From NCBI GenBank assembly GCA_036497385.1, contig DASXJO010000978.1:2048-66047 (forward strand): a stretch of DNA of 64,000 nucleotides. The letters are read 5' to 3'. The notes beneath the pieces were generated by a model. The model saw only the letters and a program-made list of their open reading frames with translations, searched no databases and was not told where the DNA came from. Shown here piece after piece: positions 7,365-56,487 of this stretch. The number at the start of each line of letters is the position of its first letter. The stretch's first letter is position 1. The DNA is from Candidatus Angelobacter sp. (GTDB lineage Bacteria > Acidobacteriota > Terriglobia > Terriglobales > Acidobacteriaceae). Both the position numbers and the translations under genes were made by a program.

Positions 7365-8700
7365 GTGAGCCAATCCAGCGTCGGTTTCCATCCTACACAC
7401 ATGGATCGTGCACTTGCACCGTCGCTCTCTTCTGCCCAGCAGCGAGTATGGTTTGTAGAGCAGTTCGAATCGGGAAACACGGGCAACCAGTTTACATGCG
7501 CGTTCCGGCTACGCGGCGAGCTGGATGAGCGCGCTCTGCGGCGGGCCATCCAGGCGGTGGTGGAGCGCCACGGGGCATTGCGGACCCGCTTTGTTGAAGT
7601 AGATGGGAGGCCGGCGCAAATTGTCGAGCCGGACGCGCGAATCGAACTGAGCCAGGAAGACTGGAGTGGTTATCCAAAGAGCGCGCAAGCTGAAAAATTG
7701 TCGGCGCTTTTGCGTAACGAATGGGACCAGCCGTTCGAGCCCGGCGGTTTCCCCATGTTTCGCCTGAAGCTGGTGCTCCTCGCGGCAAATGAATATATTT
7801 TTGTCCAAACCTTTCATTACCTGGTGTCTGACCAGGCCTCGCTGGAAATTTTTTTTCGAGAGCTTATTCAGGCATATACAGCCGCAAGGCAGGGACGCGA
7901 CTATCAGTGGGAAGCATTAAGCCTGCAATACATTGATTTCGTAGCCTGGGAACAAAGCTATCGTCAACAAGACGGGCTGGTGCAGGACCTGGCTTATTGG
8001 AAGGATCAGCTGGCCGGCCTGCATCCGGTTACTTTGCCTTACCATGCTGCACGTTCTCGGGCCTCCACCTCAGCCGCCGTCTATCACGTCACTTTGCCAG
8101 CCGAGCAGTTTGCAGTCCTCAAACAACCAGAGAAGGCGCAGAAGGCCTCCACACATGCCATAGTGGCAGCTGCTCTGGCTGTATTGCTTGCGAAACTTAC
8201 GGATGGGCGTGAATGTCTCATCGCCTGCCCCGTGGAAATCCGGCACGATCCGGTGTTCACCCCCTTGATGGGGTGCTTTTTGAATCTTGTTCCGCTACGC
8301 CTGGGAATAGAGGGATGGACACGGGAGTTCTGGACGCTGGTGGAGTCAGTACAGAAGGCTATTGATGGAGCCTGTCTGCATTGCCGGGTTCCGTTTGAAG
8401 ATCTGGTTGCCGAGCTTTCTCCGGACCGCCGCATGGACCTTGCGCCGCTCTTCCCGATAGAGCTTGATGTCCATGGCGAAGAGTGCGAAACCTGCGTGAT
8501 CGACGGTCTCCAGGTTGAAAGATCACGTGTCGATAAGCAGCGCGTTGCGTTCGACCTGGAAATCAACGTTTACGAGAGGAATGGCCGGCTCGACTTTGAC
8601 TGGGTTTATAAGCGTGACCTGTTCGATCATGAGCGCATCGCCGCAATGGCGGAATTGTATCTGCGCATACTCCAGTCGGCCATTGCCGATCCGCACGCGC
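7365..8700 (+). other. N-terminal condensation-like domain with mutated catalytic motif (HYLVSDQ at 7815-7835)
   Basis: It has LCL-like C1/C2 motifs (SLSSAQQRVWFVEQ, VERHGALRTRF). At the HHxxxDG position it reads F-H-Y-L-V-S-D-Q. The second, catalytic His is Tyr and the Gly is Gln. Confidence 0.8.
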
Positions 8701-42685: not shown

Positions 42686-43627
42686 GTGAGTTCGAGAATA
42701 ATGGCAAGACTAGATCGTTGTAGCGCATCCGATTTCGCCGATTCCGGCTTCCAGTCCGTGGGCCTGGGGACAAGCATCGCCCATCACGGCGAGCTGTTTC
42801 AAGGCCAAATAAGGGGTGAAGACGGGCAGTTGCGATATTGCCTGCTGTCACTGCCCTGTAGCCAGCTTGGCTCCAAGGCAACTTTTGTCCCGGACACCAC
42901 CGGTATATGCCGCGTCCACCCGGACTATAAAGAGAAGGTCAAGAGAGTCGTGCAACTTACGCTCTCACATTTTCAGTACGACCATCTGGGCGGGCTCATC
43001 AAGGTAGAAAGCAATATCGCCGAGGGAAAAGGCTATGGAAGTTCGACCGCGGATTGCGTCGCGGGCGCAATTGCAGCCGCGGCGGCGATCGACCACGAGT
43101 TGTCTGAAGCCACTCTGGCTAAATTGGTGGTACGGGCTGAAATCGCAAGTGACAGCATTATGTTCAAGCATGCTGTTCTTTTCGCGCACAGAGAAGGCAG
43201 CCTGATTGAAGATTACCTGCGCCCAGCCCCGAAAATCGAAGTACTTGGATTCGACACCAATGTGGCTGTCCGGGTCGATACGCTCCAGTATGACCCTGCT
43301 GTCTATGGGACGCATCACATACAAGCATTTCACCGGCTTAGAGAAATGCTGGCGGAAGCTATCCGCACCCAGGACGTTCGGCTTTTGGCGCATGTTGCCA
43401 CGGCCAGCGCCGCAATCAATGAGCAATTCCTGCCCAAGCCGATGTTTCAGGAAGTCTGCACCCTCGTCAAGTGCGTTGGAGGCCTAGGGGTTGCGGCTGC
43501 ACATTCCGGGACCATTTTAAGCATTTTATTCGACCCGCAAGATCCTGCTCTCGAAAAACGAATCGACATTCTTCACCGGGAATTGAGCAGCCTGGGTCTT
43601 TCACAGCTGATGCGTTTTCATACTTAA
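42686..43627 (+). CDS. GHMP-family kinase, PduX (L-threonine kinase)-like
   Basis: Blocks that parallel my recollection of Salmonella PduX: SIAHHGELFQGQI (PduX has CGELIQGW), VESNIAEGKGYGSSTADCVAGAIAAAAAI (the GHMP phosphate-binding motif), ASAAINEQFLPKPMF, and LGVAAAHSGTILSILFD. The alternative start is ATG 42701. Confidence 0.8.
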   Translation: MSSRIMARLDRCSASDFADSGFQSVGLGTSIAHHGELFQGQIRGEDGQLRYCLLSLPCSQLGSKATFVPDTTGICRVHPDYKEKVKRVVQLTLSHFQYDHLGGLIKVESNIAEGKGYGSSTADCVAGAIAAAAAIDHELSEATLAKLVVRAEIASDSIMFKHAVLFAHREGSLIEDYLRPAPKIEVLGFDTNVAVRVDTLQYDPAVYGTHHIQAFHRLREMLAEAIRTQDVRLLAHVATASAAINEQFLPKPMFQEVCTLVKCVGGLGVAAAHSGTILSILFDPQDPALEKRIDILHRELSSLGLSQLMRFHT

Positions 43628-43641
43628 GGAGCGGTAATCAC

Positions 43642-44697
43642 GTGAGTGCTACAAAAGCGATATCGCCGGTGAGCTTCGATATTTACCGCCCAGCCTTTGT
43701 CGCGCTGGCGGATAACCTCATTGCGGCCGTATTTCCACTCATGAAAATCTATCCGGCCGAGTACTGTCTTCGGACCGCAATCAAGCAGGGGCTGATCGAT
43801 GATGGCACAGTCATTGTCGAAACATCGTCCGGCAATCTTGCGCTGGGCCTGGCGATTGTCTGCAACTCGATGGGCCAGAAACTCACTATCGTAACCGACT
43901 ACGCTTGCGATCCGCATTTATGCCGTCGATTGACCGATTTAGGAACGAACCTGGAGATTGTGCCCGCGCCTGCCGCTACCGGCGGCTATCAAAGAGCGCG
44001 CCTGGATCGCCTTGAGGAGATCCGGCAGGTGCAGCGCAATCACTGGTGGCTGAACCAGTATGACAATCTGGGAAACTCAGAGGCATATCGGTCGTTTGCA
44101 CAGCAGATTCTGGAAACGGTGGGCCCCATTGATTGCCTGGTAGGGACCGTAGGCTCCGGAGGTTCGGTCTGCGGGACCGCCAAGGCGCTGCGAGAGACCC
44201 TGCCGATGTTACATGTGATCGGGGTAGATACATTCGGGAGCGTGCTCTTCGGCCAACCGGAAAGGCCAAGAGTGCTGCGGGGGCTGGGCAACAGCATCAT
44301 GCCCAAGAACCTCGACCATACCGTATTCGATGAAGTCCACTGGGTTACCGCAGCAGAGGCCTATAAAGCTTCGCGGGTGCTCCACCAAAGAACGGCGCTT
44401 TTTCGCGGTGGAACCAGCGGTGCTTCCTGGCTAGTGGCCCAGCATTGGGCCAGAATGAATCCCGAGGCGCGCGTGCTGTGCATCTTCCCCGATGACGGCT
44501 ACAGATACGCAGACACCATTTACAACGATTCATATCTGGCGGCCTCCGGATTAATTTTGCCTTCCTTGCCAAGCTGCCCTAAACAGGTCGATCAGCCCTC
44601 CGACTCAGGTCCGGAATGGTCGTGGATGAAGTGGATGCGCCGCAGCTTGGTTACCGTGATGCAAATGAACCATGAACAAGCGTCGAGGCTGAGATGA
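43642..44697 (+). CDS. Fold-type-II PLP-dependent enzyme (cysteine synthase / SbnA / cystathionine-beta-synthase family)
   Basis: The track ORF starts at 43471 inside the kinase gene. I place the start at GTG 43642, 10 nt after AAGGAG (43626-43631). Motifs: LMKIYPAEY (PLP-lysine position of the S-x-K-D-R block), VETSSGNLALGLA, GTVGSGGSVCG (the phosphate-binding Gly loop), and GGTSGASW. Confidence 0.8.
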   Translation: MSATKAISPVSFDIYRPAFVALADNLIAAVFPLMKIYPAEYCLRTAIKQGLIDDGTVIVETSSGNLALGLAIVCNSMGQKLTIVTDYACDPHLCRRLTDLGTNLEIVPAPAATGGYQRARLDRLEEIRQVQRNHWWLNQYDNLGNSEAYRSFAQQILETVGPIDCLVGTVGSGGSVCGTAKALRETLPMLHVIGVDTFGSVLFGQPERPRVLRGLGNSIMPKNLDHTVFDEVHWVTAAEAYKASRVLHQRTALFRGGTSGASWLVAQHWARMNPEARVLCIFPDDGYRYADTIYNDSYLAASGLILPSLPSCPKQVDQPSDSGPEWSWMKWMRRSLVTVMQMNHEQASRLR

Positions 44698-45911
44698 AAG
44701 AGTCCGTGATTTTAATTGAGAGTAATACGACCGGCACCGGGCGCTTGTTTGCCCAATGCGTACGCTCTCTCGGATATCGTCCTGTTCTGCTGGCGGAAGT
44801 TCCTTCGCGATACACATATATAAAGGATGACGACATCGATTGCCTGCAAGTCAGAACCTCAGAGCCGTGGGAGCTGCGGGAAGCGGTCAGCCGGTTGGCG
44901 CAGGAGACGCCGATTGCGGGCATTTACTCCAGCTCTGAATATTTCATAGAAGAGGCGGCAACGCTTGCTTCCAGCTATGGTCTGCCTGGCGCCGACCCGT
45001 TGGTTGTGAAGGAGTGCCGCAATAAATATCATCAGCGGCTTCGCCTCAAAGAGGCGGGAATTCCGGTCCCCCGGTTCTGGTTCGCCAGTTCTCATTCAGA
45101 CCTTGCAGAGCTGCTCCAATCCGTTCCGCTGCCCGTAGTGGTGAAGCCTGTTGCTGGAAGCGGCAGCGTCGGCGTGAGGCTATGCCGGACCTACGCTGAA
45201 GTTCTCCAGCACTGCAGCGATCTGCTCAACAGGACTGTCAATGAGAGAGGATTGCCACAACCCTCGGATGTCCTGATTGAGGAGTACCTGGAAGGACAGG
45301 AATATTCTGTCGAAATTTTTGGCAACGCGATCATGGGCATTACTCTGAAGCATGTTTCGCGCGGGCCTTCTTTTGTGGAGATCGGCCACGATTTTCCTGC
45401 CCGCCTGGCCCCCGATGTGAATGAACAAATCGCGCAAACCGCGCTCCGCGCGAGCAAAGCCATGGGGCTGAACTGGGGGCCGATCCATATCGAGATCAAA
45501 ATGACCTCTCGGGGGCCTGCGATTGTTGAGATCAATCCCCGCCTTGCCGGGGGGTTCATACCCGAACTGGTGCGGCTTGCGTATGGGATCGATCTGATTC
45601 GCGAATCCGTGCGCAATATCGTTCAGCACGCCATCGATATCAAACCTACCAGCAACCGGAGCGCATCTATCCGCTTCCTGGTGCCCCGGACCAGCGGCAG
45701 GGTCAGGTGTATTGAAGGTGTGGAGGAAGCCAGAAGCGTTCCGGGCGTAGTGGAAGTGAGGACATACGTTCAGCCTGGAAGCGATGTGCAGCTGCGCGGA
45801 GACTTCCGTGACCGCATTGCCCATGTTATTGCATCCGGCGTTGCCGAGGGAGCGGCGGAGCATTCATCGCAAACGGCTTGCAACAGGATCAACATTGAAG
45901 TGAGTTCGTAA
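44694..45911 (+). CDS. ATP-grasp ligase (405 aa)
   Basis: Shares an ATGA overlap with the upstream gene. Motifs: CRNKYHQRLRLKEAGIPVP, PVVVKPVAGSGSVGVRL, LIEEYLEGQEYSVEIF, and GPIHIEIKMTSRGPAIVEINPRLAGG. Together these form the ATP-grasp fold signature. Confidence 0.8.
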   Translation: MKESVILIESNTTGTGRLFAQCVRSLGYRPVLLAEVPSRYTYIKDDDIDCLQVRTSEPWELREAVSRLAQETPIAGIYSSSEYFIEEAATLASSYGLPGADPLVVKECRNKYHQRLRLKEAGIPVPRFWFASSHSDLAELLQSVPLPVVVKPVAGSGSVGVRLCRTYAEVLQHCSDLLNRTVNERGLPQPSDVLIEEYLEGQEYSVEIFGNAIMGITLKHVSRGPSFVEIGHDFPARLAPDVNEQIAQTALRASKAMGLNWGPIHIEIKMTSRGPAIVEINPRLAGGFIPELVRLAYGIDLIRESVRNIVQHAIDIKPTSNRSASIRFLVPRTSGRVRCIEGVEEARSVPGVVEVRTYVQPGSDVQLRGDFRDRIAHVIASGVAEGAAEHSSQTACNRINIEVSS

Positions 45912-45922
45912 AAGAGAAGAAG

Positions 45923-47392
45923 ATGGAAAATACGGGAAGAATCCGGAAGCTTCTGAGTCCCACCGCCCGCAAGATCCTTTTCGGGCGGTCCACCAGTTCG
46001 ATGATTGATGACGAGTTGCCGTTCATTTGCAGCGCCGATTGTGCTCACCTGGTGATGCTTGCCGAATGCGGCATATGCGACCCGCAGTCGACTGCGCGAT
46101 TGCTGCGGGCCATTCAGCGTCTGATGGAAGCAGACTTTGATGTGCTGCGAGGCCGCGATCCTGTGCGCGGCATGTTCCTCTTATATGAGGACTACCTCAT
46201 TGAAACGGAGGGAGCTGAAGTTGGCGGAATCTTGCAAACCGCGCGATCAAGAAACGATTTAAACGCCACAGTGACAAAGATGCGGCTGCGGAAGCCTTAT
46301 ATCCGGCTACTTTCCGAAATCCTGAAATTTGAGGCAATTTTGTTAAGGCGGGTGGAAGCCTATCTTGATGTCGTGATGCCGGCCTACACACATGGCCAGC
46401 CGGCCGCGCCGTCAACCCTGGGGCACTATCTGGCTGGTTTTACGCAAGCCCTCATGCGCGACTTCGATGGCCTTTTGGATGCGGGCAGGAACATCAGCCA
46501 GTCTCCTTTGGGCTCCTGTGCAATCGCGGGCACGTCATTTCCCATTGATACGCGGCGAACTGCCCAATTACTCGGGTTTGATGAAGGACCAGTGAATTCC
46601 GTGGATGCTATCGCTTCTCGCGATCTGGTCCTGCGGATTCTTGCAGCAGCTTCCATTTGCGGCATCACTTTAAGCCGGCTGGCGACCGACCTTCTTGAAT
46701 GGAGCACCGCCGAGTTTGGATTCCTGGATTTGCCGGATGAGTTGGTCGGCTCAAGTTCGGCGATGCCCCAGAAACGGAATCCCTTTCTGCTGGAGCATGT
46801 AAAAGGACGAACCGCCTCTATTCTGGGAGCTTTTGTTGCCTCGGCCTCCGCTATGCGAGGAACGCCCTTCACGAATTCTATTGCTGTTGGGACCGAGGCG
46901 ATAAAGCCGGTTTGGGCGGCCTTGGACGAACTGACGGACAGCGTTGTATTGTTGCGCATTTTTGTAGCCGGACTGCGCCCTAAGCGCGAAGCGATGATGC
47001 AGTGCGCAAAGGCGGGATTTACCGTCGCCACCGAACTGGCGAACAAATTGGTGGCCAGAGCAGGCATGGATTTTCGCAGTGCGCATAGAGCGGTCGGGCA
47101 AGCCATAACCGCCGTGGGCAACAAAGAATCGGGTTCGGTTGAAGCGATTGCCGCCGAAGTGTCGAGTTCAAGGGGCATATCCATTCTGGCTGAAGAGCTT
47201 GAGCCGGCTTTTGTGGCCCAAGCGAGCGTCTCCGGTGGCGGACCTGCACGGTCCTCAGTGGAGACATGCCTTCAGATGCTCAAGCAACGCTGGCTTGAGC
47301 AGAAGGCCCAGAGCCGGTCTTACAAAAGAACGTGGCTGAATGCGGAAGCCCAACTGGAAGATGCCGTCCAGACGCTACGCCAGTGTTCGTAG
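45923..47392 (+). CDS. Argininosuccinate lyase / fumarate-lyase superfamily C-N lyase (489 aa)
   Basis: Motifs: TARSRNDLNATV, HGQPAAPSTLGHYL, and the superfamily signature GSSAMPQKRNPFLLEHVKG. Confidence 0.85.
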   Translation: MENTGRIRKLLSPTARKILFGRSTSSMIDDELPFICSADCAHLVMLAECGICDPQSTARLLRAIQRLMEADFDVLRGRDPVRGMFLLYEDYLIETEGAEVGGILQTARSRNDLNATVTKMRLRKPYIRLLSEILKFEAILLRRVEAYLDVVMPAYTHGQPAAPSTLGHYLAGFTQALMRDFDGLLDAGRNISQSPLGSCAIAGTSFPIDTRRTAQLLGFDEGPVNSVDAIASRDLVLRILAAASICGITLSRLATDLLEWSTAEFGFLDLPDELVGSSSAMPQKRNPFLLEHVKGRTASILGAFVASASAMRGTPFTNSIAVGTEAIKPVWAALDELTDSVVLLRIFVAGLRPKREAMMQCAKAGFTVATELANKLVARAGMDFRSAHRAVGQAITAVGNKESGSVEAIAAEVSSSRGISILAEELEPAFVAQASVSGGGPARSSVETCLQMLKQRWLEQKAQSRSYKRTWLNAEAQLEDAVQTLRQCS

Positions 47393-47482
47393 ATTGAAAT
47401 AGAACGGGCACTGGCCGCTGTAGTAGAGGGTTTCTGCCCGTCGCGCTTTTCGAAGTAAAAATTTAATTGGAGGAACTAAGAC

Positions 47483-48226
47483 ATGACTGAATCTCTCGAG
47501 AAATTATTGGCAAAGATCACCAACCATTCCGCGCTGGAAAACAAATTCTATGATGAGTGGATGTCCAGAAAATTTTCTGTCAATGAACTGGCGATTGTTC
47601 ACAAAAATTATGGTGAATGGGTCAGGTCCTTTCCCGATGCGCTGGCAATTCTTCTGGCCGGCACGCAAGATGTGGAAGCAAAAACGGAATATGCAAAAAC
47701 GCTTTACTCGGAAATGGGATATGGAAATTCCAGCAAGGTGCATTCCGTGCTTCTTAATAACTTTTTCAAAGAGCTGGTCGAGAGAATGGACCCTGCGCAG
47801 GCGGCGGATTGGGAGCGGCTGCATCAAGAAATTTATCTGGCGCCGAGCACCCAAGAATTGGTTCGCGGCGAGCAGGACCTTTATCGCGATCCGGAAATGT
47901 CCTTTGGCGCTCAGCTTGCGCTGGAGTGGCAGGCATATACGATGCTGAGGAAACTGTACGATGGGGCCAGAAATTACATTGAATTTTGGCCGAACCCGGA
48001 TGACTTCCATGAAGCGTGTGAATATTTCTATGCTCATATTGGCGCCACGGAAAAAGAACACAAGCAAGAGTCTCTCAAGGCGGTGAGGCGATACGCTGTC
48101 AACCAGAAAGCCCTGGATAAGATCGTCGAAGGATATGAACTTCACCTGGGCCTGATCGCCCGTTTCTGGCGAGGACTATATGCTGAAATAACCCAACCGA
48201 GTGCGATATCAATGGCAATAGCTTGA
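47483..48226 (+). CDS. Heme-oxygenase-like fold protein (TenA/PqqC/CADD-type, possible di-iron oxidase), 247 aa
   Basis: All-helical protein. NHSALENKFYDEWMSRKFSVNELAIVHKNYGEWVRSFP resembles the N-terminus of PqqC/TenA/CADD-like proteins. Candidate metal ligands sit in E-x-x-H-like spacings (YSEMGYGNSSKVHSVL; LEWQAYTM; FYAHIGATEKEHKQE). Confidence 0.55.
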   Translation: MTESLEKLLAKITNHSALENKFYDEWMSRKFSVNELAIVHKNYGEWVRSFPDALAILLAGTQDVEAKTEYAKTLYSEMGYGNSSKVHSVLLNNFFKELVERMDPAQAADWERLHQEIYLAPSTQELVRGEQDLYRDPEMSFGAQLALEWQAYTMLRKLYDGARNYIEFWPNPDDFHEACEYFYAHIGATEKEHKQESLKAVRRYAVNQKALDKIVEGYELHLGLIARFWRGLYAEITQPSAISMAIA

Positions 48227-48808
48227 GCCAGGCTTTTGATGTTGACTCCATGTGACCGAATCAGCGACGTCCCTGGTCGCCCCTCTGTTCTTGCGGTTGA
48301 AACGGCCATCGAGGAGCAGAAAAAGCTGTTCGTAGGCGATCAAGAATTTGCAACCTGCTGTTTTGGGGGCAACAGCTTGGGCTGCCGGAGCACCGCGGCA
48401 GAGATGAAGGTCCTCTGTTTTTCTCTATGCCGGCGGGTAAGAAAGGGAGACCTTCGCTGCGAGAGGCAATATAAGTTTGACAAAAATACCGGAGTTCATC
48501 GCGGATACTCCCAGACGTGAGCCGCCAAGCCACGAAGGGGAGTACGCGATGGTAGCCTGCCAGGCCTCCAGGCTCCGGTGCAGATTGTGATCGGCATTTG
48601 TGATTGGCGGCGCTCAGATCGTGTATTACGCACGCGATTGCCGTCGCTGTTATCGCTGTATCGCTCGCCCATCCTCGTCCCCATCGACGAAGCTGTGCTC
48701 GATTAGGCGTCGAAGTAGAATTTTGATTTTCTTATACTTCCAGAGTACCTGCCTAGCCTCATCGAGCAAAAAATGCTGAATGCGGGAACGGCTGTAACTG
48801 CTTGAAAA

Positions 48809-48836
48809 GGTTTGGCGTCCCAAACCAACTCTTTTT
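48809..48836. terminator. Candidate bidirectional intrinsic terminator at the operon/island border
   Basis: GGTTTGG-CGTC-CCAAACC (7-bp stem, 4-nt loop). It is followed by AACTCTTTTT on the + strand and preceded by AAAA, which gives a T-run on the - strand. It lies between the end of the + operon and the 3' end of the - strand gene at 48895. Confidence 0.4.
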
Positions 48837-48894
48837 GAACCAAGCGGAGCGACTGACGGTGATTATGCGGCGGTTCGGCAAGACAGGATGAGTG

Positions 48895-49637
48895 TTATTC
48901 CCAACCAGCCTTCATCCTATTCTTTTCAATGTGATACCACTTAATGTGGTGACAGAGCCTATTGCCCAAATCGGTCATCCGTGGCGTGATTACGCCGGTC
49001 GTATTTCTATTTACACGCTTGAAGAAACCGTTCTCTTCAAGATTTCTGTCCGCTAGATCAACCAGTGCAGAAATGGAGTGGCCCATCGACTGCGATATCT
49101 TACGCGTCCATTCGTCATAATTTTCGTTCGTTGGAGTATCTGTTGGCTTCTCCATTTCGTATGTTGCCTTCAAGACCACAAGATCATTCGACGTAAGCTT
49201 TTTGGCCATCTGGAAAAGCTGGTATTCCACAATCCTTCAGCGTCATCAATTTTGATATTGTTGACAGAGAAAAACATCGCTTTTAACGCGTCAAGCCTTT
49301 CCTCATCCGGTGATTCTTCATCAATGATCGTAAACAGATCGACCCAGGTTTTCGCGCCGTCCTTTCTGTCAATGAAGTCCTCAGGTATTCTGCCTTTCTT
49401 GCGAAACTCTTCAATTTCCTGCGCCACCTGCTGGAAGAGTTTTGCTTTGAACGGGGCTTGAACAATACGCCCAACCGACAATGTCCATTCTTTAGGCCCG
49501 CTGGCAAGAAACCTGTCACGATCTCAGCTATTACAGACAGTGGCTGCTCCAAAAATCCGCGACGAGGTCGGCATTGGGAGCTTTGACTATTTCGGCGAAA
49601 TCACGAGGCTTAATGATATGGCTTTCGGTTTCTTTCA
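48895..49637 (-). pseudogene. Degraded gene of unknown function (at least three frame changes)
   Basis: Consecutive coding-looking pieces lie in three minus-strand frames:
- MKETESHIIKPRDFAEIVKAPNADLVADFW (from ATG 49637, stop after 35 codons).
- EQPLSVIAEIVTGFLPAGLK.
- VGRIVQAPFKAKLFQQVAQEIEEFRKKGRIPEDFIDRKDGAKTWVDLFTIIDEESPDEERLDALKAMFFSVNNIKIDDAEGL.
- EYQLFQMAKKLTSNDLVVLKATYEM...HIEKNRMKAGWE-stop (48895). Confidence 0.55.
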
Positions 49638-49710
49638 TGGCTTCGATTTTAAGACACCTAATGATCGTAAAAGATAACACCATTCTGGGTAGATAATCAG
49701 CGTCTTACTA

Positions 49711-49739
49711 TTGCGGTTCGCTGACAATTCGCCTAGAAT
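49711..49739 (+). promoter_or_regulatory. Possible sigma70-like promoter for the sORF/E2-E1/JAB operon
   Basis: TTGCGG (49711-49716), a 17-nt spacer, then TAGAAT (49734-49739). It sits about 8 nt upstream of the GGAGG of the small ORF. This is a consensus-based guess only. Confidence 0.2.
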
Positions 49740-49757
49740 AAATGGCGGAGGTGTTTT

Positions 49758-49874
49758 ATGGCAGACGATAAAAAGAACGAGAACCCTGGCAAAGATGGTG
49801 ATAAAGACAGAGGCAAGGAGCGCGAGCGTGAGAGGGATGATCGTCCACAGCAGCCCGACCGCCGTCATGGATGA
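49758..49874 (+). CDS. Unannotated 38-codon ORF: hyper-charged peptide ending in Gly, translationally coupled to the E2-E1 gene
   Basis: GGAGG (49747-49751) lies 6 nt before the ATG. The product is MADDKKNENPGKDGDKDRGKERERERDDRPQQPDRRHG, with 24 of 38 residues D/E/K/R. Stop TGA 49872-49874 overlaps ATG 49871-49873 of the next gene (ATGA). The ORF is below the size cut-off of the supplied track. Confidence 0.5.
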   Translation: MADDKKNENPGKDGDKDRGKERERERDDRPQQPDRRHG

Positions 49875-51592
49875 ACATCAAGTCACGCTATGGAGAAGCC
49901 CCGCAAATGGCAGAGTATAAAGCGTGGTATCAGCGATACCCGGATATGTTTGAAGAAGAATGCGAAGAAATGCGGAAGCGTAGCTTTTCATTGGATCAAT
50001 CCGCTTTTGCAGAAAAATGCGTAACATTTGCGGGGCCATCCTCAATCGAGCCTGACCTTATATTCAGAGTTGAGTATCCTGATAGCTTTCCTTCCAAACC
50101 ACCACGTGTTTCAACGCCCGAAAATTGGCATATCCTGCCGCGTCATCACAGCCCACACTCACGGGAAATCTGTACCTTTGGTCTGAATCAACACCGGTGG
50201 AGCGCCCATTTTAATGGAACGGCTGCCATTGATGAGGCTGAACATGTCATCCGAGATATGTTACGAGTCAACACAGAGCAAGGTGACCGTGGCGATCTGA
50301 TTGATGATGTTCCTGAGCCGATCACCGTGTCGTATAACTATCAATCTGTGACCTCTATCTTGGTCCCACCTGCAATTGCGAAAATTGCAAAAACAATGGC
50401 AGTTGGTGACACAGCGAATTTCCATATTCTCTTCAAAACGTGGCCACGGATGACGGTCGGGCGAATGCAGCCTGGGCGCGGAGTTGTTTCTGAATTTCGT
50501 TTTGGAAAAACGATTGTGAAATCTGAGGAATTTTTTCTCAACATGGTTGCGGGGGGCATTGATGTTAACGGGCCTATAGTCCGTTTAAATTCTGCGCCGC
50601 CCAATTTCACTTTAGCTACAGAGTTCAATTCGTGGCTCAAAGAAATTGGAATTGACCGACGTGATTGGATGGTGTTTGTTTTTCCTGAGCAGTCTGGTAC
50701 TGCTGATAGTGAGCGCCTAGCCTGGATTGTTTTCCGGTCACGCGGGGATAAATTCGTTGAACCGCTGCGAACGTTTATCGTAGACGATGTGGGCGGGAAT
50801 CCGCGTATACCAAAGCTTCAGGCGCTTGCTGAAAAAAAGGTCGTGCTCGTTGGATGTGGCAGCATGGGATCAAAAATCGCTGTTGCACTAGCGGCGACGG
50901 GAGTTGAATCCTTTGGAATAGTTGATTTCGATTTCATGGAGCCAGCAAACTCGGTTCGGCATGAACTGGGGGTCGAGAGCTTTGGCATTCCCAAACCAAA
51001 CGCATTGCAGCGGCGGTTGATTGAAGCTAATCCCAGGGTTTGGAATAAAGTTGAAGTCAGTGATCTGTTGATCGGACAGACAAAACGAACAGGGAAAGAA
51101 GAGCTGTTCCATGGGATTCTCGCTTCAGCGTCGCTCGTAATAGATTCAACTGGGGATCATGGAGTAAGCCGATTCTTAAATGATCTTTGTTCAGAGCTTA
51201 ATGTTCCACAAATTTATGCCAGCGTAACAAATGGGGCTTGGTCTGGTGAGGTCATCAGAGTCATCCCGAGGCGGACGGCCTGTTGGTTATGTTGGCTGTG
51301 GGAGTATGAAAACCAGCGTCCATCAGGTGAACCAGCACCGGGGCCGGGAGTATTTGCACCCGGTTGCGATCATCCAACGTTCACCGGTACAACTTATGAT
51401 GTCGGCATAGTCGCTAATCTTGCTTCATCGTTGGCAGTGGACACCCTATTAATCGAAGACGAGAATAGAAGTCATTTCAATGGCGACTACTTGCGATGGC
51501 AACTTAAGGATGCGAATGGACTTTTCGTTCCTAAAATTGAAGTTTTGCCGATTCACAAGAGAAATGATTGCAGATTATGCGAAACGCGGTAA
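49871..51592 (+). CDS. E2-like / E1 (ThiF-MoeB) fusion protein, Cap2-like (573 aa)
   Basis: N-terminal UBC-like block: FRVEYPDSFPSKPPRVSTPENWHILPRHHSPHSREICTFGLNQHRW. C-terminal E1 adenylation domain: VVLVGCGSMGSKIAVALAATGVESFGIVDFDFMEPANSVRHELG, LVIDSTGDHG, CWLCW, and APGCDHPTF. Confidence 0.8.
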   Translation: MNIKSRYGEAPQMAEYKAWYQRYPDMFEEECEEMRKRSFSLDQSAFAEKCVTFAGPSSIEPDLIFRVEYPDSFPSKPPRVSTPENWHILPRHHSPHSREICTFGLNQHRWSAHFNGTAAIDEAEHVIRDMLRVNTEQGDRGDLIDDVPEPITVSYNYQSVTSILVPPAIAKIAKTMAVGDTANFHILFKTWPRMTVGRMQPGRGVVSEFRFGKTIVKSEEFFLNMVAGGIDVNGPIVRLNSAPPNFTLATEFNSWLKEIGIDRRDWMVFVFPEQSGTADSERLAWIVFRSRGDKFVEPLRTFIVDDVGGNPRIPKLQALAEKKVVLVGCGSMGSKIAVALAATGVESFGIVDFDFMEPANSVRHELGVESFGIPKPNALQRRLIEANPRVWNKVEVSDLLIGQTKRTGKEELFHGILASASLVIDSTGDHGVSRFLNDLCSELNVPQIYASVTNGAWSGEVIRVIPRRTACWLCWLWEYENQRPSGEPAPGPGVFAPGCDHPTFTGTTYDVGIVANLASSLAVDTLLIEDENRSHFNGDYLRWQLKDANGLFVPKIEVLPIHKRNDCRLCETR

Positions 51593-52047
51593 GTTATCGG
51601 CAAATCCTTTTCCAGAAGAACGTGCTGGACCTTATAAGACGGGAAGTGAAAAAGTCCCCGAATACAGAAACCGGTGGGGCATTGATTGGATACTTAGCTC
51701 AAGATAATTGCGTTATCGTTACGGATGCGTGCGGACCCGGTCCCAGAGCGGAGCTTAAACGGTACAGTGTTCTCATTGATGGAAAATATACTTCTGCTTT
51801 TTGTGACCGCATATTTGAACAGTCTCGCGGAAAGTTGGATTACATCGGTGACTGGCATCGCCATCCAGGATGGTCTTTGCGGTCAAGTTCTCAAGACCTA
51901 ACCGCCATGCATACAATTCGAGATTCTGGGTGTTGCTCCATACCTTACCCCATTACGGCAATTTACCGAAGAAGGCCGGAGAAGATCATTGCGTATGTTT
52001 TCAGTGCTGACCGGTTAAAGCGCGTAAAAATGACGTGGATCGACTAG
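51568..52047 (+). CDS. JAB/MPN+ (JAMM) metalloprotease, Cap3-like (159 aa)
   Basis: NTETGGALIGY provides the catalytic Glu. GDWHRHPGWSLRSSSQDL provides the HxH...S..D JAMM motif. The gene overlaps the E2-E1 gene by 25 nt. Confidence 0.8.
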   Translation: MQIMRNAVSYRQILFQKNVLDLIRREVKKSPNTETGGALIGYLAQDNCVIVTDACGPGPRAELKRYSVLIDGKYTSAFCDRIFEQSRGKLDYIGDWHRHPGWSLRSSSQDLTAMHTIRDSGCCSIPYPITAIYRRRPEKIIAYVFSADRLKRVKMTWID

Positions 52048-52445
52048 CGTGATCGCGGCAGAGTCTGCGTTGAAGCCAAGCGCTCGTTTCGCCTCCTGAA
52101 TCGTAACCTCTCCGTCCCTTATACGTTCCAGCATGGATGAGTCTTTGGCTACGATGCGTTTGCTTCAGGCACGTAACCATGGCTGGCCCCGGTTAACTGA
52201 GCCACATTCTTTGTGGCCTGCCCAAATGAACTTCCACCCAAGTTTGGGTGAATGTCCGTTCTGGCCCCTTGCCGCTCCTTCCAGTAGTGGTAACAGCGCA
52301 AGAGCCGCTGCTGCCCGTTGGCTGGCATCCAGGTCCCTCCGTGTATGCTTCGCTGCTATCCATTGAACCGGCCCGACACTTCCGAATGAGAAATAGAAAT
52401 TTCCCTATTGATAGATAGTGACAAGTAGAAGTATCATGCCTACCC

Positions 52446-52991
52446 ATGAAAGCACGTAAGACGCTGCACACCGTCATGGTTTGCAGTTTTATCATTGCTG
52501 CCTGCTTGCAGACACAGGCAAAGAAAGCCGATTTACCCGATGATATTCTCTCCGCAAAAACTATTACGGTACGGGTGAAGTTTGTTGGAGATGGAACAGT
52601 TACTGACAAGAAGACCAAACGTTGGGGGCAGCCTCCTCGCCATCACGCCTCAGCAGATGAATTGAGAACTTACACCGATTATGCGCGTGCTGAGGTCGAA
52701 GAGGTGTTCACCAGAAAACAGAGATTTCAGGTAGTCTCCGATCCATCCAATGCCGACCTTGTCTGTCTGGTAATCATTTACGCGCCTCACTTATTTGACG
52801 GAAGAGTGAGCGGAGCCTTTTATGAAGTCGTAATGGTCATGAAAGGTGGAACCAGTACGCATTGGGACGGAGCGCCGATATGGATGACAACAGACTTTGA
52901 CTTAGCTCGCAAAAACTATAAGGACAACGTAGCGATACTTCACGACCAGATCGAACAGACTGAAAAAACTAAGCAACGAGGGACGCAATGA
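52446..52991 (+). CDS. Putative lipoprotein / secreted protein (181 aa)
   Basis: Signal peptide with the lipobox-like MVCSFIIAAC. Paralogous to the N-terminal domain of the next gene (RFQVVSDPSNADLVCLV...VMVMKGGTSTHWDGAPIWMT). Confidence 0.55.
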   Translation: MKARKTLHTVMVCSFIIAACLQTQAKKADLPDDILSAKTITVRVKFVGDGTVTDKKTKRWGQPPRHHASADELRTYTDYARAEVEEVFTRKQRFQVVSDPSNADLVCLVIIYAPHLFDGRVSGAFYEVVMVMKGGTSTHWDGAPIWMTTDFDLARKNYKDNVAILHDQIEQTEKTKQRGTQ

Positions 52992-53719
52992 CAACAAACC
53001 TGTTGAGGATTGCCGGGTTGCTGATTGTCACATTGACTATTACTAACGCCTATGCCGCCCGATTTCACAGTGATATTTACCGAGCGAGCACAGTGTACGT
53101 ATGTGAACTCGCTCACGATAAATGCGAACGGTCCGCACCTGAACTGATTCAAAAGCTATTTGTAAACAGGAACCGCTGGACGTTCGTTACCGAGCCTGAG
53201 AAAGCTGATTTGATCTTGGTGTGGTTCGGCAATTCCTATACTGCATCAACTGCCATGGGAAGAGTCAGCATTAGCAATACGTGGCACTTCAGCGGACTCG
53301 TTGTGCTTAAGGGTGGATCGGCCCCGGATTGGAATGCTGTGCCCCTCTACGTCACAAACGGAAAATACGCATCACCGATGATTCAGGAGTTTTACGATGA
53401 AGTCATTCAGACTGCTCCTCTCTTTGTGCCGCCCAGTGCGCTCGTTTCAATGCCAAATACTACTCACCATATAGTGGGATGGGGCCGAAGCATTGAAGAA
53501 TATACGCAGATTCTCGCAGATGAGCCGGGGAATGCAATGGCGTACTATGCGCGTGGGGCGGCATACTTTGATTTGGGTGAATATGAGAAGGCGATCAAAG
53601 ACTTCAATATGGCGCTGATCCTGAAGCCGGACTTTGAGGAGGCACAGACACGGCTGGAATCGGCCAAGAAAGCCAAAGCCGCCGCTGATTGCCATTACCA
53701 GATTTTCTGTCCGAAATGA
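52988..53719 (+). CDS. Secreted protein: N-terminal domain paralogous to the upstream gene plus C-terminal TPR motif (243 aa)
   Basis: Signal-like N-terminus LLRIAGLLIVTLTITNAYA. The paralogous block is RWTFVTEPEKADLILVW...LVVLKGGSAPDWNAVPLYVT. The TPR-like segment is AMAYYARGAAYFDLGEYEKAIKDFNMALILKPDFEEA. Shares an ATGA overlap with the upstream gene. Confidence 0.6.
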   Translation: MTTNLLRIAGLLIVTLTITNAYAARFHSDIYRASTVYVCELAHDKCERSAPELIQKLFVNRNRWTFVTEPEKADLILVWFGNSYTASTAMGRVSISNTWHFSGLVVLKGGSAPDWNAVPLYVTNGKYASPMIQEFYDEVIQTAPLFVPPSALVSMPNTTHHIVGWGRSIEEYTQILADEPGNAMAYYARGAAYFDLGEYEKAIKDFNMALILKPDFEEAQTRLESAKKAKAAADCHYQIFCPK

Positions 53720-54115
53720 GGAATTGAAAAGGACGATGCTGCACTACAGTCAAAATCCGAACACCGAGAAACTCCTGGCGTTGTGCGTTTCCGCATCAAT
53801 CCTGCTATTTCTCATGCAAGCCAATCCGGCCCCAGGTTATGAAACTGAACTCACGCATAAAATCGAAGCGGATGGAGGAAAGGTCTATCGGATTCGGGCC
53901 GGGGTACCACCAGGGCGGGTTTCCCGGGGCCAAGCTTCATGGCGCGTTTCATTCTCCTGTGATTCGTCGTAAAAACCGACCCGACGATAGCTCGGAATCG
54001 AGGCTATGTCAATGAAAACGAGCAGGTTAGCTCGGTAATGTTAACAAGGGTCTGGATGTCATAGAAAACAGGAATGTTACTGCCCTTTAAAGCTTGCTTT
54101 GACTAAAATCCAGCC

Positions 54116-54669
54116 ATGCCAGCCCTTCCTCTTTTGCATGATGCCTCGCAATGGCTTACCGCTACGATTTCAACCGTGGTTGGAGCTGCGTTCGGTTTCT
54201 CATCCAGTCTGTGGCTCGATGAGATCAAAACGCGACGGGTCGAAAGAAGGCTACGACGGCGATTACAGAGGCAATCTACACAGAGTTAGCGATGCAGCAT
54301 GCTTTGATTAAGGACCTTATATTGAAGGCAGCCCAGACAACTTCGTCTCAGCAACTGGAAGGCACAGCGGCGGTACTGAAAAAGACACGGGCCGACGCCT
54401 ATGAGTTCGCAAAGTCTCAACCGGCAATTTTCTACGAGCTGAAAGACGCTATGATAATCGATGTGCTCTACAGCCACATTCATCATGCTGTAGAGCACGA
54501 TAAGGCTCCCTCATCAACGACGATTGGAGTATACCAACTATTCATTCAGAGTCTGGAGGATTCGGTTCTGCGTGGCGACATTGACATGCAGAGCATGGAA
54601 GAGACGGCACCGGATGACTACAAGCACTTTTCCGGCATCCGCTCCCAGGCACTTGCTGCTGGGAACTAA
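54116..54669 (+). pseudogene. Membrane-anchored helical protein, possibly split by a frameshift (TM segment 54116-54289; soluble part 54292-54669)
   Basis: The ATG 54116 frame gives MPALPLLHDASQWLTATISTVVGAAFGFSSSLWLDEIKTRRVERR... and stops at 54287. The +2 frame is open from 54223 (DQNATGRKKATTAITEAIYTELA) and runs straight into the track ORF MQHALIKDLILKAAQ... It could alternatively be two separate small genes. Confidence 0.35.
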
Positions 54670-54670
54670 A

Positions 54671-55450
54671 ATGCCCCACTACCGTACAGCAATCCTTACC
54701 TATCTCGATGTTCTTGGATTTAGTGAATTGGTGCATCAGTCTGCCAGTGATCCTGCCAAAGTAAGCGAGATCATGAGTATCTTAAAGATCGCGAAGAAGA
54801 GGGGCACCTGCGGGATTGCGACCGGCGGTGAGTATGCAACAAAGATCATCACTCGCACGTTTACTTTCTCTGATCTCATAATTCGCATCACGTATGTGGA
54901 ACCTCATGATGATTTAATTGTGAGGCTGAATATGGAATTGATGATGCTGGCAGGCATCCAGTGTGAGCTGACAGCGATTCACGGAATTTTATTACGCGGC
55001 GGAGTTTCCCTGGGGCCGTGCTATGGAGATGACGAGTATCTATTTGGGCCAGCGCTAATTCAGTCGTACCGGCTTGAGGAACAAGTCGCCCTATTTCCTC
55101 GGATCGTCATTGATACGGATTTAGTTACCGAGGCTGCGAAGCGTCCCAATGAGATTTAGCCCAAGGTCTTTCGTCGCGGCGAGGATGCGAGTTATTTCAT
55201 TGATTATCTCTACGCCGGTTGGCAGAATCCGTCCGGCGGTTTCATACGCACTGGGTTCAGGAATGCTGACGCCATGATGAGCGCCCATAGATTTATTATC
55301 GAAGATAAACTCAATCATGTACGCGGAGATCGCGCTAGGCAGAAGCTCCTTTGGACTGCGCTCTACCATAATTCTGTGATTGACCGACTCACGCTGGACG
55401 GCGGCAATGTTCCGGCCTCTCTCAAAATTTCTGACCTACTGCTGAGATGA
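54671..55450 (+). pseudogene. Class III nucleotidyl-cyclase-fold protein interrupted by one in-frame TAG (55157-55159)
   Basis: MPHYRTAILTYLDVLGFSELV parallels the first metal-Asp strand (FaDIvGFT). TFTFSDLIIRIT is the second Asp strand. ILLRGGVSLGPCYGDDEYLFGPALIQSYRLEEQVALFPRIVIDTDL parallels RiGihtG....GpavNlAaRLe....g.I.is. After the TAG the same frame continues for 96 more codons (PKVFRRGEDASYFIDYLYAGWQNPSGG...LKISDLLLR) to TGA 55448-55450. Confidence 0.6.
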
Positions 55451-55983: not shown

Positions 55984-56487
55984 TCAAATCTTCAATGCAG
56001 CTCTTCCAGCCAAAATCGGAATTCCACGGGGAGTAGCGGCGTCGAGTAGGAGATGCGATACGTAACCGGCAGCTAGTCCATTGAGAAAGCCAGCCAGCAA
56101 TGTCCAGATCAATTCACCTATTTCTGCCCAAAGCTGTTCGAGCGGGGTTCGCTGGATCGGTAACCACTCGCCTGTTTGAGCGTCCTCGACGTGAGGCACC
56201 CGGCACTTGACGGCATTCTGCCGACAGATGCTGGCCCAGTTAGTCAAAGTTTGTTGGGCATAGATCAAAACCCCGCCTGCGCTTGCACTGTGGCAGACGC
56301 CACGATGCCAGGAACAAACTGCGGGTTCGAGCCAGTCAGGAGCCATCCCGCCCACCATCCCACCAAGGGCACCGCCCATCATTTCGATCAGAAGGTGTGG
56401 CTTCGTTTCCTGCTGTGCTTGAACGGCAGCCAGGGCAACTCCCGCAGCCGCGCCGACGTATTTATGTGTCTCTCTTCCGGGCATCAA
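55984..56487 (-). CDS. Membrane-bound metal-dependent hydrolase-like protein (YdjM/DUF457-like), 167 aa
   Basis: Hydrophobic glycine-rich helices (GAAAGVALAA, GGALGGMVGGMAPDWLEP), a conserved His/Asp pattern, and the C-terminal SHLLLDAATPRGIPIL typical of this family. Confidence 0.5.
   Translation of the reverse strand: MMPGRETHKYVGAAAGVALAAVQAQQETKPHLLIEMMGGALGGMVGGMAPDWLEPAVCSWHRGVCHSASAGGVLIYAQQTLTNWASICRQNAVKCRVPHVEDAQTGEWLPIQRTPLEQLWAEIGELIWTLLAGFLNGLAAGYVSHLLLDAATPRGIPILAGRAALKI

Follow-up and report, generated by a model that had tools for sequence, protein, structure and literature searches.

What does a Cap2/Cap3-like enzyme pair act on when no cyclase is encoded beside it? This question is raised by a 64,000-nucleotide stretch of contig DASXJO010000978.1 from Candidatus Angelobacter sp. 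(Acidobacteriota), hereafter the window, in which three co-directional open reading frames (ORFs) of the forward strand, recognised from the sequence itself and from the ORF list, encode a peptide of 38 residues, an E2-E1 fusion protein and a JAB protease. In type II CBASS, an antiphage system whose signalling is based on cyclic oligonucleotides, Cap2 forms a thioester with the C-terminal Gly or Ala of the CD-NTase and conjugates it, and Cap3 reverses this conjugation (PMC10097602; PMC11153139; bioRxiv 2022.03.31.486616); it has also been shown that the loss or replacement of the terminal residue of the CD-NTase abolishes conjugation, and that the reversal by Cap3 is scarless (PMC10097602; bioRxiv 2022.03.31.486616; PMC11153139). 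The original prediction, made from the letters of the window, proposed that the enzyme pair and the peptide form a minimal tagging system that lacks a CD-NTase. The three ORFs and their coordinates, the GGAGG located 6 nt before the ATG of the small ORF, its 24 charged residues out of 38 and its terminal Gly were all borne out by the sequence. The three genes are intact and under selection. The reading that we favour, and that we consider fairly probable, is that they constitute an autonomous module for conjugation. It would descend from the Cap2/Cap3 arm of type II CBASS, its cyclase having been replaced by a 38-residue peptide that kept only the conjugation tail; the peptide would probably be the cognate Cap2 substrate, i.e., a miniature, fold-less protein tag.

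The evidence that carries this reading comes from the C-terminus of the small ORF product. Relatives of the module were found by profile-based scans of genome and metagenome contigs, which succeeded where a single-protein scan of genome contigs gave no relatives; 45 full-length family loci plus three more were collected, and the sequence inspected comprised the window and about 6–10 kb around each homolog. In all 48 loci, including the window, a forward ORF ends between -14 and +33 nt from the Cap2 start, and in 46 of them its product finishes with D-[RWY]-x-x-Q-P-[DNE]-R-R-H-[G/A]; loci L016 and L112 carry the tail variant VDRTHG or VDRTNG. Since the C-terminal 11–13 residues are conserved across the whole family, the small ORF lies far beyond what would be expected by chance. 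A six-frame scan of 167 sequences (1.7 Mb) detected the tail motif in 48 of them, in one copy each, and exactly once in the 64 kb of the window; 47 of these 48 sequences belong to the family, with one locus represented twice. When 119 other loci, whose E1 or Cap2 genes are more distant, were considered, the motif was present only once, a frequency compatible with chance; this sole non-family locus is L068 (Bradyrhizobium sp. CSA207), and about 0.2 chance matches are expected by estimate in the sequence scanned.

The tail is conserved as protein. Within the clade that includes the window (clade a), the 13 tail codons show 430 synonymous versus 62 nonsynonymous pairwise codon differences; such pairwise counts are not phylogenetically independent, but per-site codon diversity gives the same conclusion. 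The residues D(-11), Q(-7), P(-6) and R(-4) are the same throughout the 36 tabulated loci, in spite of the use of 2, 2, 4 and 6 codons, respectively; outside this set, locus L165 replaces the Gln of position -7 with His (PPHPDRRHG). The predominance of synonymous differences, together with the codon diversity at invariant sites, indicates that selection acts on the protein. Amino-acid-level conservation of the small ORF upstream of cyclase-less homologs was the test that had been set beforehand, and it was passed strongly; the alternative that the small ORF is only a leader or coupling ORF is disfavoured by the same protein-level selection. The final residue is Gly in 28 and Ala in 8 of 36 family loci. 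In some tail ORFs the reading frame continues past this residue, with DAERPL in L003, Q in L097, K in L010 and ED in L014; these additions would fit a maturation step carried out by the JAB protein, as occurs for ubiquitin precursors. A search of a protein collection with a 47-residue tail profile gave 18 matches, all of them small tail-bearing proteins, although the word index used limits the sensitivity of this search and the number is not a full census.

The nature of the sequence that precedes the tail differs among the clades of the family. In clade a, found in Acidobacteriota, it is a net-neutral charged peptide of 32–47 residues; in clade b, a His/Glu-rich peptide; and in clade c, Pro-rich peptides of 46–57 residues. 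Clade d carries the tail on proteins of about 116–126 residues with a DUF3892 domain (Pfam 8.7e-7), and clade e on Cys-containing domain proteins of about 70–86 residues that have no family assignment. In clade f, from Bacilli, the body is a CD-NTase of roughly 300 residues (PADLOC cyclase 1.5e-82, Pfam SMODS), preceded by a membrane effector as in a classical type II CBASS operon, and this CD-NTase ends in the same tail as the window peptide. CD-NTases (about 1e-150) also lie in front of the more distant Cap2 genes used as outgroup; their tails are different (...KPRGFG, ...PRDFA) but likewise end in Gly or Ala. In a neighbour-joining tree the family formed by clades a to f is monophyletic (100/100), as are clade a (99/100) and clade f (100/100), and the order among clades lacks support; given that the outgroup and clade f are both CBASS, a CBASS ancestor is the parsimonious inference. 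As judged from its sequence, the window peptide is the presumptive recognition handle of a Cap2 substrate without the body of that substrate. The notion of a minimal modifier is thus supported by a tail that is conserved and equal to that of the CD-NTase of a sister CBASS, and conjugation itself would follow by analogy.

A bolder proposal, which we hold tentatively and rate as somewhat less probable than the module itself, is that the 11-residue handle D-R-x-x-Q-P-D-R-R-H-G is a portable conjugation tag placed on interchangeable cargo, namely a cyclase, a domain of the DUF3892 or of the small Cys-containing kind, peptides rich in Pro or His, or charged peptides of 32–47 residues; the form present in the window would then be the smallest known modifier of the E1/E2-thioester type, a fold-less ubiquitin analogue with which a three-gene defence or conflict module tags host or phage proteins. 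As regards the cargo of the clade e type, the unnamed small proteins are encoded at L095 (5747-5986), L097 (1024-1254), L099 (4863-5075) and in P0111-P0122; they follow the pattern MAKV.PFHTNS.E....HREVYHD.D.CPDG.RIKPEHR..GTGG.K.C.ECEK, and then continue with a His-rich linker and the tail. This family of about 70–86 residues had no match in Pfam, NCBIfam, PADLOC or PHROG, and it would be a new domain that serves as Cap2 cargo.

The two enzymes encoded downstream of the peptide correspond to the Cap2/Cap3 pair that had been proposed, as borne out by ThiF, Prok-JAB and PADLOC matches and by the structural match described here. The E2-E1 protein matches Pfam ThiF (2.7e-25) and, over residues 65-532, the PADLOC model for the CBASS 'E1-E2' protein (PDLC00855, 1.4e-39). 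With the single sequence as query, a search of the PDB aligned only the Rossmann region, and the match to Cap2 needed profile and structure searches: a profile built from 36 homologs has Cap2 from E. cloacae (7to3_A) as its top match (4e-20), and the AlphaFold2 (AF2) model of the protein, with a predicted confidence (pLDDT) of 87, gives 7to3_A as the top Foldseek match (E 6.2e-23, 593 aligned columns, TM 0.59), ranked above all stand-alone E1 proteins, MccB and BubCD. The protein is therefore modelled as a full-length Cap2-type fusion with a non-canonical E2 domain, a linker and a ThiF-type E1 domain. The original prediction was right in calling it an E2-E1 fusion, but the E2 domain of Cap2 is of the non-canonical ATG3/ATG10-like type and not a classical UBC fold.

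The residues expected to be catalytic are conserved in both proteins. In the alignment of 36 E2-E1 sequences C101, C471, C474, C499, C567 and C570 are invariant, and in the AF2 model C499 sits in the flexible loop 493-501, between two invariant CxxC pairs. In the published Cap2, the E2 cysteine C109 is located on a hairpin and the E1 cysteine C548 on the crossover loop (bioRxiv 2022.03.31.486616); C101 and C499 would occupy the corresponding places, a correspondence by position and not by residue-level structural superposition. The JAB protein matches Pfam Prok-JAB (1.7e-7; 31.6 bits versus a cutoff of 25) and the PADLOC JAB model PDLC00890 (3.9e-23); its JAMM motif, E34...H97xH99...S107..D110, is as complete as had been claimed, and the five residues are invariant among homologs. 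In 35 of 37 loci, Cap2 has a JAB gene after it. On the other hand, the NCBIfam Cap3 model NF050170 gives the JAB protein 1.1e-11 and 45.2 bits versus a curated cutoff of 200, and the top NCBIfam match of both enzymes is the 6A-MBL cap2_3 model NF058523, with 72 and 62 bits versus a cutoff of 320. From these scores the window enzymes are regarded as divergent relatives of the curated families and not as equivalogs.

The peptide itself has an unusual composition. Its charged residues comprise 12 acidic and 12 basic ones (5 of them Lys), so that the net charge is 0. Upstream of every clade a Cap2 homolog there is an orthologous peptide of 32–47 residues, with 58–77 % charged residues, a net charge from -2 to +1, 3–9 Lys and almost no hydrophobic residues; D, E, K, R, N, Q, G and P make up nearly all of the bodies. 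For the first four related loci, gene callers had independently annotated an upstream ORF of 32–36 residues in three, and in the fourth the ORF lies in another frame. The peptide of the window had no match in Pfam, NCBIfam, PADLOC or PHROG; its gene was not called by the annotation pipeline of the depositor, and its exact sequence is absent from a collection of 15 billion proteins, hence it is unannotated. When modelled alone with AF2, it shows a lone charged helix at residues 15-28 and coil elsewhere, with a predicted template-modelling score (pTM) of 0.29 and no globular fold; no beta-grasp fold was found in its 38 residues, which were modelled as helix and coil. The disorder expected from its composition thus holds as far as a globular fold is concerned, but the model suggests one charged helix and not complete disorder. 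Given that Lys is present in all clade a peptides, the formation of chains is conceivable; however, few or no Lys residues are found in the Pro-rich and His-rich peptides, and chain formation is therefore not a general requirement.

The arrangement and the expression signals of the module, collected in Table 1, place the peptide ORF as its first cistron, since a conserved promoter-like element and a Shine-Dalgarno sequence lie directly upstream of it. In most of 11 aligned members of clade a the upstream region keeps TTGACn-N17-TAgAAT with the TTCGC repeats, and a GGAGG or AGGAG-like block aligns 5' of the peptide ATG. A generic sigma-70 promoter scan listed no site upstream of the small ORF, because the -35 hexamer of the window matches the consensus at 3 of 6 positions. 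No Rfam match to a structured RNA or leader was obtained in 49400-52300, even at E<=1. Regarding the start of the E2-E1 protein, the ATGA overlap with the small ORF described in the original prediction is present in the sequence but probably does not provide the start codon in use: all 35 aligned homologs and the 561-residue NCBI model begin at the equivalent of ATG 49907, and in-frame stops in the nearest relatives (L001, L002 and L004) exclude a longer N-terminus there. The conserved start is probably ATG 49907, either one being possible in this window. The sequence ATGGAGAAGCCCC between the peptide stop and the Cap2 start is kept in the window and in the same three relatives. In 36 loci the distance between the tail ORF's stop and the Cap2 start candidate nearest to the conserved N-terminus ranges from -14 to +32 nt (-8 to +32 in most of them), and some other family members show a 4-nt or 1-nt overlap of stop and start; this narrow distance in all 36 loci indicates that tight spacing or coupling is a feature of the family, even if the start at +32 is the one used in the window. 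The E2-E1 and JAB genes overlap by 25 nt if the latter starts at TTG 51568, and by 16 nt if it starts at ATG 51577.

Table 1. Coordinates of the three-gene module in the window and of one related tail ORF (C101 and C499 in the numbering of the 573-residue form)
Feature	Position	Strand	Details and basis
Promoter-like element	49711..49739	+	Conservation and position; function assigned from these alone
Parts of the promoter-like element	-35 49711-49716; -10 49734-49739	+	TTGCGG, 17-nt spacer, TAGAAT; sequence
Direct repeat TTCGC-N6-TTCGC inside the spacer	49717-49721 and 49728-49732	+	Sequence
Shine-Dalgarno GGAGG	49747..49751	+	6 nt 5' of the small ORF ATG; direct sequence reading
Small ORF	49758..49874	+	38 residues, MADDKKNENPGKDGDKDRGKERERERDDRPQQPDRRHG; proposed Cap2 substrate/modifier; ORF reading and orthologous peptides
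Conjugation tail	49836..49871	+	DDRPQQPDRRHG; C-terminal Gly codon GGA 49869-49871, then TGA; family consensus
Shine-Dalgarno-like block GGAGAAG	49892..49898	+	8 nt before ATG 49907; conserved flank
Cap2-like E2-E1 fusion	49907..51592	+	561 residues; in-frame alternative ATG 49871 gives 573 residues
Candidate E2 catalytic Cys C101	50171-50173	+	TGT; N-terminal non-canonical E2 domain
ThiF/E1 adenylation domain	about 50813-51529	+	GCGSMGS nucleotide loop and two CxxC pairs; after the linker domain
Candidate E1 crossover-loop catalytic Cys C499	51365-51367	+	TGC; within the ThiF/E1 domain
Cap3-like JAMM/JAB isopeptidase	51568..52047	+	159 residues (TTG 51568) or 156 residues (ATG 51577); domain matches
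Extended tail ORF of locus L003	7873-8001		Residues continue past Gly/Ala

The next aspect to consider is whether the module depends on genes encoded nearby. The absence of a CD-NTase or effector in its vicinity, noted at the outset, holds: no match to cyclase or effector models was found in 19 window ORFs examined by PADLOC (9 of them close to the module and 10 larger ones elsewhere, other than the four giant ORFs described below), nor to Pfam SMODS in 15 Pfam-scanned window ORFs, and no CD-NTase is located within about 6 kb of any locus of clades a to e. The same scans readily pick up the cyclases of clade f and of the outgroup. An all-against-all comparison of the ORFs located within about 6 kb showed that the loci of clade a share only the tail ORF, Cap2 and JAB; clade f adds a cyclase and an effector, and clades d and e, as well as L165, add a divergent pair formed by a helix-turn-helix (HTH) protein and a Peptidase_M78 protein. 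A conserved fourth gene was considered for the window module and rejected: two ORFs of 181 and 243 residues with tetratricopeptide repeats, an ORF of 211 residues and the minus-strand ORFs upstream recur in no family locus.

The regulators CapH and CapP of CBASS, an HTH protein and a Peptidase_M78 protein, have been reported beside DUF3892 operons and 6a E2-E1-JAB operons, and the pairs of clades d and e and of L165 match this arrangement. In L165 (6133-8722), the CapH/CapP-like pair is followed by LTD, YdjM and DUF2188 genes on the opposite strand, and then by a Pro-rich tail peptide; DUF2188 has been tied in the literature to defence and to CapH/CapP. The YdjM gene of this locus (8071-8436), just upstream of the peptide ORF, is weakly similar (24-27 % identity) to a gene for a YdjM-family membrane protein of the window (55984-56487, minus strand), 4 kb downstream of the module; YdjM is present in 2 of about 45 loci, which may be coincidence.

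Modules of clade a have as neighbours integrases, resolvases, IS21 elements and type IV secretion genes of integrative and conjugative elements, and also Shedu SduA_C, methyltransferases, restriction and SNF2 genes and a Multi_ubiq/Prok-E2_E/ThiF system. The latter, an unrelated ubiquitination-like system, lies in L164 (9288-11350), 6 kb from the module and with IS21 between them. Surroundings of mobile elements and defence islands are circumstantial evidence for a role in conflict; because of these neighbourhoods, and of the CapH/CapP-like regulators in sister clades, it is suggested that the module may act in defence or conflict. In the window, the module is embedded in a stretch of low GC content (0.47-0.50 at about 48000-55000, versus 0.55-0.59 in the neighbouring biosynthetic cluster), and this stretch may be an island gained by horizontal transfer; neither a tRNA gene nor an integrase was detected in the 47-58 kb region of the window.

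By homology with Cap2, the following mechanism may be proposed. The operon would be transcribed from the conserved promoter-like element just 5' of the small ORF, and the peptide would be translated from its own strong ribosome-binding site. The E1 domain would bind the tail ...DDRPQQPDRRHG and adenylate the carboxylate of the terminal Gly38; the peptide would then form a thioester with C499 of the crossover loop and afterwards with C101 of the E2 hairpin, from where it would be transferred to a lysine (or the N-terminus) of one or more target proteins. The JAB protein would reverse the conjugation, and in the relatives that have residues after Gly/Ala it would begin by freeing the terminal one. 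For the window we infer from this homology that the peptide is adenylated, passed on as a thioester and conjugated.

Several points weigh against an autonomous module whose substrate is the peptide. The published interaction between Cap2 and the cyclase is bipartite, involving both body and tail (bioRxiv 2022.03.31.486616), so that the tail alone might bind weakly. The body of the peptide is of low complexity, and its conservation is compositional, not positional. The curated NCBIfam cutoffs for Cap3 and 6A-MBL cap2_3 were not reached, and the tree, whose branching order is unsupported, is compatible with one loss of the cyclase or with several. A scan of viral contigs with the family profile gave no relatives, hence there is no sign of phage carriage. 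Support for this family comes from sequence and models, any role of clade a in phage defence would be presumptive, and a tail-bearing cyclase located elsewhere in the genome is possible, the search having covered the 64-kb window.

The last point leads to a different explanation, in which the peptide is a regulator or pseudo-substrate of Cap2/Cap3 that acts in trans on a tail-bearing protein encoded elsewhere (a CD-NTase, a TIR protein or a DUF3892 protein), for instance by occupying or buffering the E1 site until infection. The DNA inspected, 64 kb of this genome and about 6–10 kb per homolog, leaves room for such a protein, and cross-recognition is chemically plausible given that the same tail is found on several folded bodies in sister clades. 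However, in the motif-bearing family loci the tail is single-copy and directly upstream of Cap2, and peptide, Cap2 and JAB stay together in neighbourhoods that are otherwise unrelated, which is the pattern of a self-contained system; we therefore regard a trans-acting peptide as unlikely.

Similarly improbable, to about the same degree, is that the conjugate serves as a store: the peptide would be held on an abundant host protein and released by Cap3 upon a signal as an active free peptide that binds nucleic acid or a phage component. This possibility agrees with the data and may be seen as a version of the autonomous module proposed here. A precedent is found in the CBASS of B. cereus, in which PspA is the sole protein to which Cap2 attaches the cyclase and Cap3 undoes the attachment, and for which the authors put forward a hold-and-release model (PMC11153139); moreover, the peptide bodies are under compositional selection, as seen in the narrow range of net charge, the high charge content and the scarcity of hydrophobic residues. 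Nevertheless, there is no sequence sign of an activity of the free peptide, and the Pro-rich, His-rich or folded bodies present in sister clades argue against one specific activity of this kind.

The idea that the two enzyme genes are what is left of a type II CBASS operon in decay, its cyclase and effector lost, with the small ORF as the leftover 3' end of the cyclase gene or as a coupling leader ORF, draws on the homology of the tail with the cyclase C-terminus and on the short unassignable ORFs in the flanks of the window. It is very unlikely. A complete ORF with its own start is kept in at least 15 distinct clade a loci, whose Cap2 is 50–100 % identical to that of the window, and the loci with an aligned upstream region also keep the ribosome-binding site and the promoter-like element; purifying selection acts on the tail, the peptide bodies are of constrained composition, and the catalytic residues of Cap2 and JAB are all invariant. 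Intact catalytic residues across many diverged lineages are not explained by the relic mentioned as an alternative at the outset. Finally, a precursor of a ribosomally synthesized and post-translationally modified peptide, whose C-terminus would be adenylated and chemically modified by the ThiF-like domain (as MccB does with the microcin C heptapeptide) to give a secreted or toxic product, is the least probable explanation of all. In its favour, searches by sequence and by structure matched the E1 domain to MccB and PaaA, among others, and a short ribosomal peptide is encoded directly 5' of the enzyme. Against it, the best full-length match is Cap2 and not MccB, the enzyme begins with an E2 domain whose Cys is invariant, a JAB isopeptidase is dedicated to the system, the terminal residue is Gly or Ala and not Asn, no conserved exporter or immunity gene was found, and the tail is common to bona fide CBASS cyclases.

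The autonomous module can also be compared with known systems. With type II CBASS (Ledvina et al. 2023; Jenson et al. 2023; Krüger et al. 2024) it shares the E2-E1 architecture, the JAB partner, the order substrate-Cap2-Cap3 with overlapping or tightly spaced genes, and a substrate that ends in Gly or Ala; besides, the sister clade from Bacilli is a genuine CBASS operon whose cyclase has the tail of the window. In contrast, the window module has no CD-NTase, no effector that responds to a cyclic nucleotide and no second messenger. Its substrate would be a peptide of the 32–47-residue class without an enzymatic body, for which reason conjugation cannot regulate a cyclase; given that cyclase and effector were looked for and not found, the window module is not a CBASS. 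In Thoeris operons, a TIR protein encoded beside Cap2/Cap3 carries a conjugation tail (bioRxiv 10.64898/2025.12.03.692087), and substrate swapping thus has a precedent; the substrate in that case is, however, a signalling enzyme with an effector partner, whereas the one in the window has no catalytic domain and no effector. The 6A-MBL system, a single E2-E1-JAB fusion accompanied by a metallo-beta-lactamase, is cited as anti-phage in P. aeruginosa and is another cyclase-less relative of Cap2/Cap3 implicated in phage defence; no description of its substrate was found. It differs from the window module in that the JAB protein of the latter is encoded by a separate gene, no metallo-beta-lactamase gene is located nearby, and the scores are far under the cutoff.

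Other systems resemble the module in organisation or in the size of the tag. In Bil/Bub (6E), the modifier, E1, E2 and deubiquitinase are encoded together and in defence islands, as in the present case, but the modifiers are of the beta-grasp type and E1 and E2 are separate proteins of other families, whereas the candidate in the window is fold-less. Pup, with which the peptide was originally compared, is also a small, largely unstructured ribosomal peptide tag that is put on lysines. It ends in GGQ or GGE and, after deamidation by Dop, is joined through the side chain of its C-terminal Glu by PafA, a glutamine-synthetase-like enzyme; pupylation uses no E1/E2 thioester chemistry. The tail of the window ends in ...RRHG and the adjacent enzymes are E2-E1 and JAB, with no homology to that system; the comparison is therefore apt for size and lack of fold and fails for the chemistry. 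MccB/MccA, of microcin C, and PaaA provide another parallel, as they have homologous E1 domains and the substrate of the ThiF-like enzyme is the C-terminus of a short ribosomal peptide whose gene is adjacent; MccB differs in that it has a peptide-clamp N-domain that is not an E2, lacks a JAB partner, modifies a terminal Asn and yields a nucleotide-peptide antibiotic and not a protein conjugate. In the literature no description was found of the tail, of tail-only peptides, of cyclase-less Cap2/Cap3 or of DUF3892 as a Cap2 substrate, an earlier mention being possible in Burroughs & Aravind 2020 or in the original 6A-MBL paper.

Outside the module, the window contains other features that may be recorded here. 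Upstream, at 7365-42634 of the plus strand, four giant co-directional ORFs (3006, 2171, 3284 and 3247 residues) are found; the one that was scanned has Condensation, AMP-binding and PP-binding domains, which identifies a non-ribosomal peptide synthetase cluster. Tailoring genes follow at 42686-48226 (GHMP kinase-like, a pyridoxal-phosphate-dependent enzyme, an ATP-grasp L-amino-acid ligase, argininosuccinate-lyase-like and Haem_oxygenas_2). Directly upstream of the module and divergent from it, two overlapping minus-strand ORFs of 111 and 103 residues (48895-49481) are in different frames and might be one frameshifted gene; they had no Pfam, PADLOC, PHROG or meaningful NCBIfam match, and no counterpart in the related loci. 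The ORF of 211 residues mentioned above (54524-55159, plus strand) clearly matches the phage protein family phrog_23933 (5.7e-19), and another of 384 residues (5171-6325, minus strand) weakly matches PADLOC mad2 of the candidate defence system 'mads' (8.5e-7). An inverted repeat of 30 nt (55685-55714/55820-55849), with arms that are 97 % complementary and 105 nt apart, gives rise to mirror-image ORFs on both strands.

Compared with the systems described above, what would be new is a peptide-sized substrate for an E1/E2 system and a modular family of the 'handle plus cargo' kind. If the peptide is conjugated, a short tail would be enough for bacterial tagging of the E1/E2 type, with no need of a beta-grasp fold or of a folded substrate, and this tail would define the minimal recognition element of a Cap2-type enzyme. 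The conjugation arm of CBASS can be followed as it evolves as a module, in which handle, ligase and protease are kept as a set and the cargo is exchanged. The DUF3892 domain and another small domain, as yet unnamed, would become substrates of a ubiquitin-like pathway, which gives a testable role to these orphan families, and a tag of roughly 12 residues with a single ligase and a matching protease is a possible tool for protein ligation. For the poorly studied soil phyla in which they are found (Acidobacteriota, Verrucomicrobiota and Eremiobacterota), these loci represent a family of three-gene candidate defence modules.

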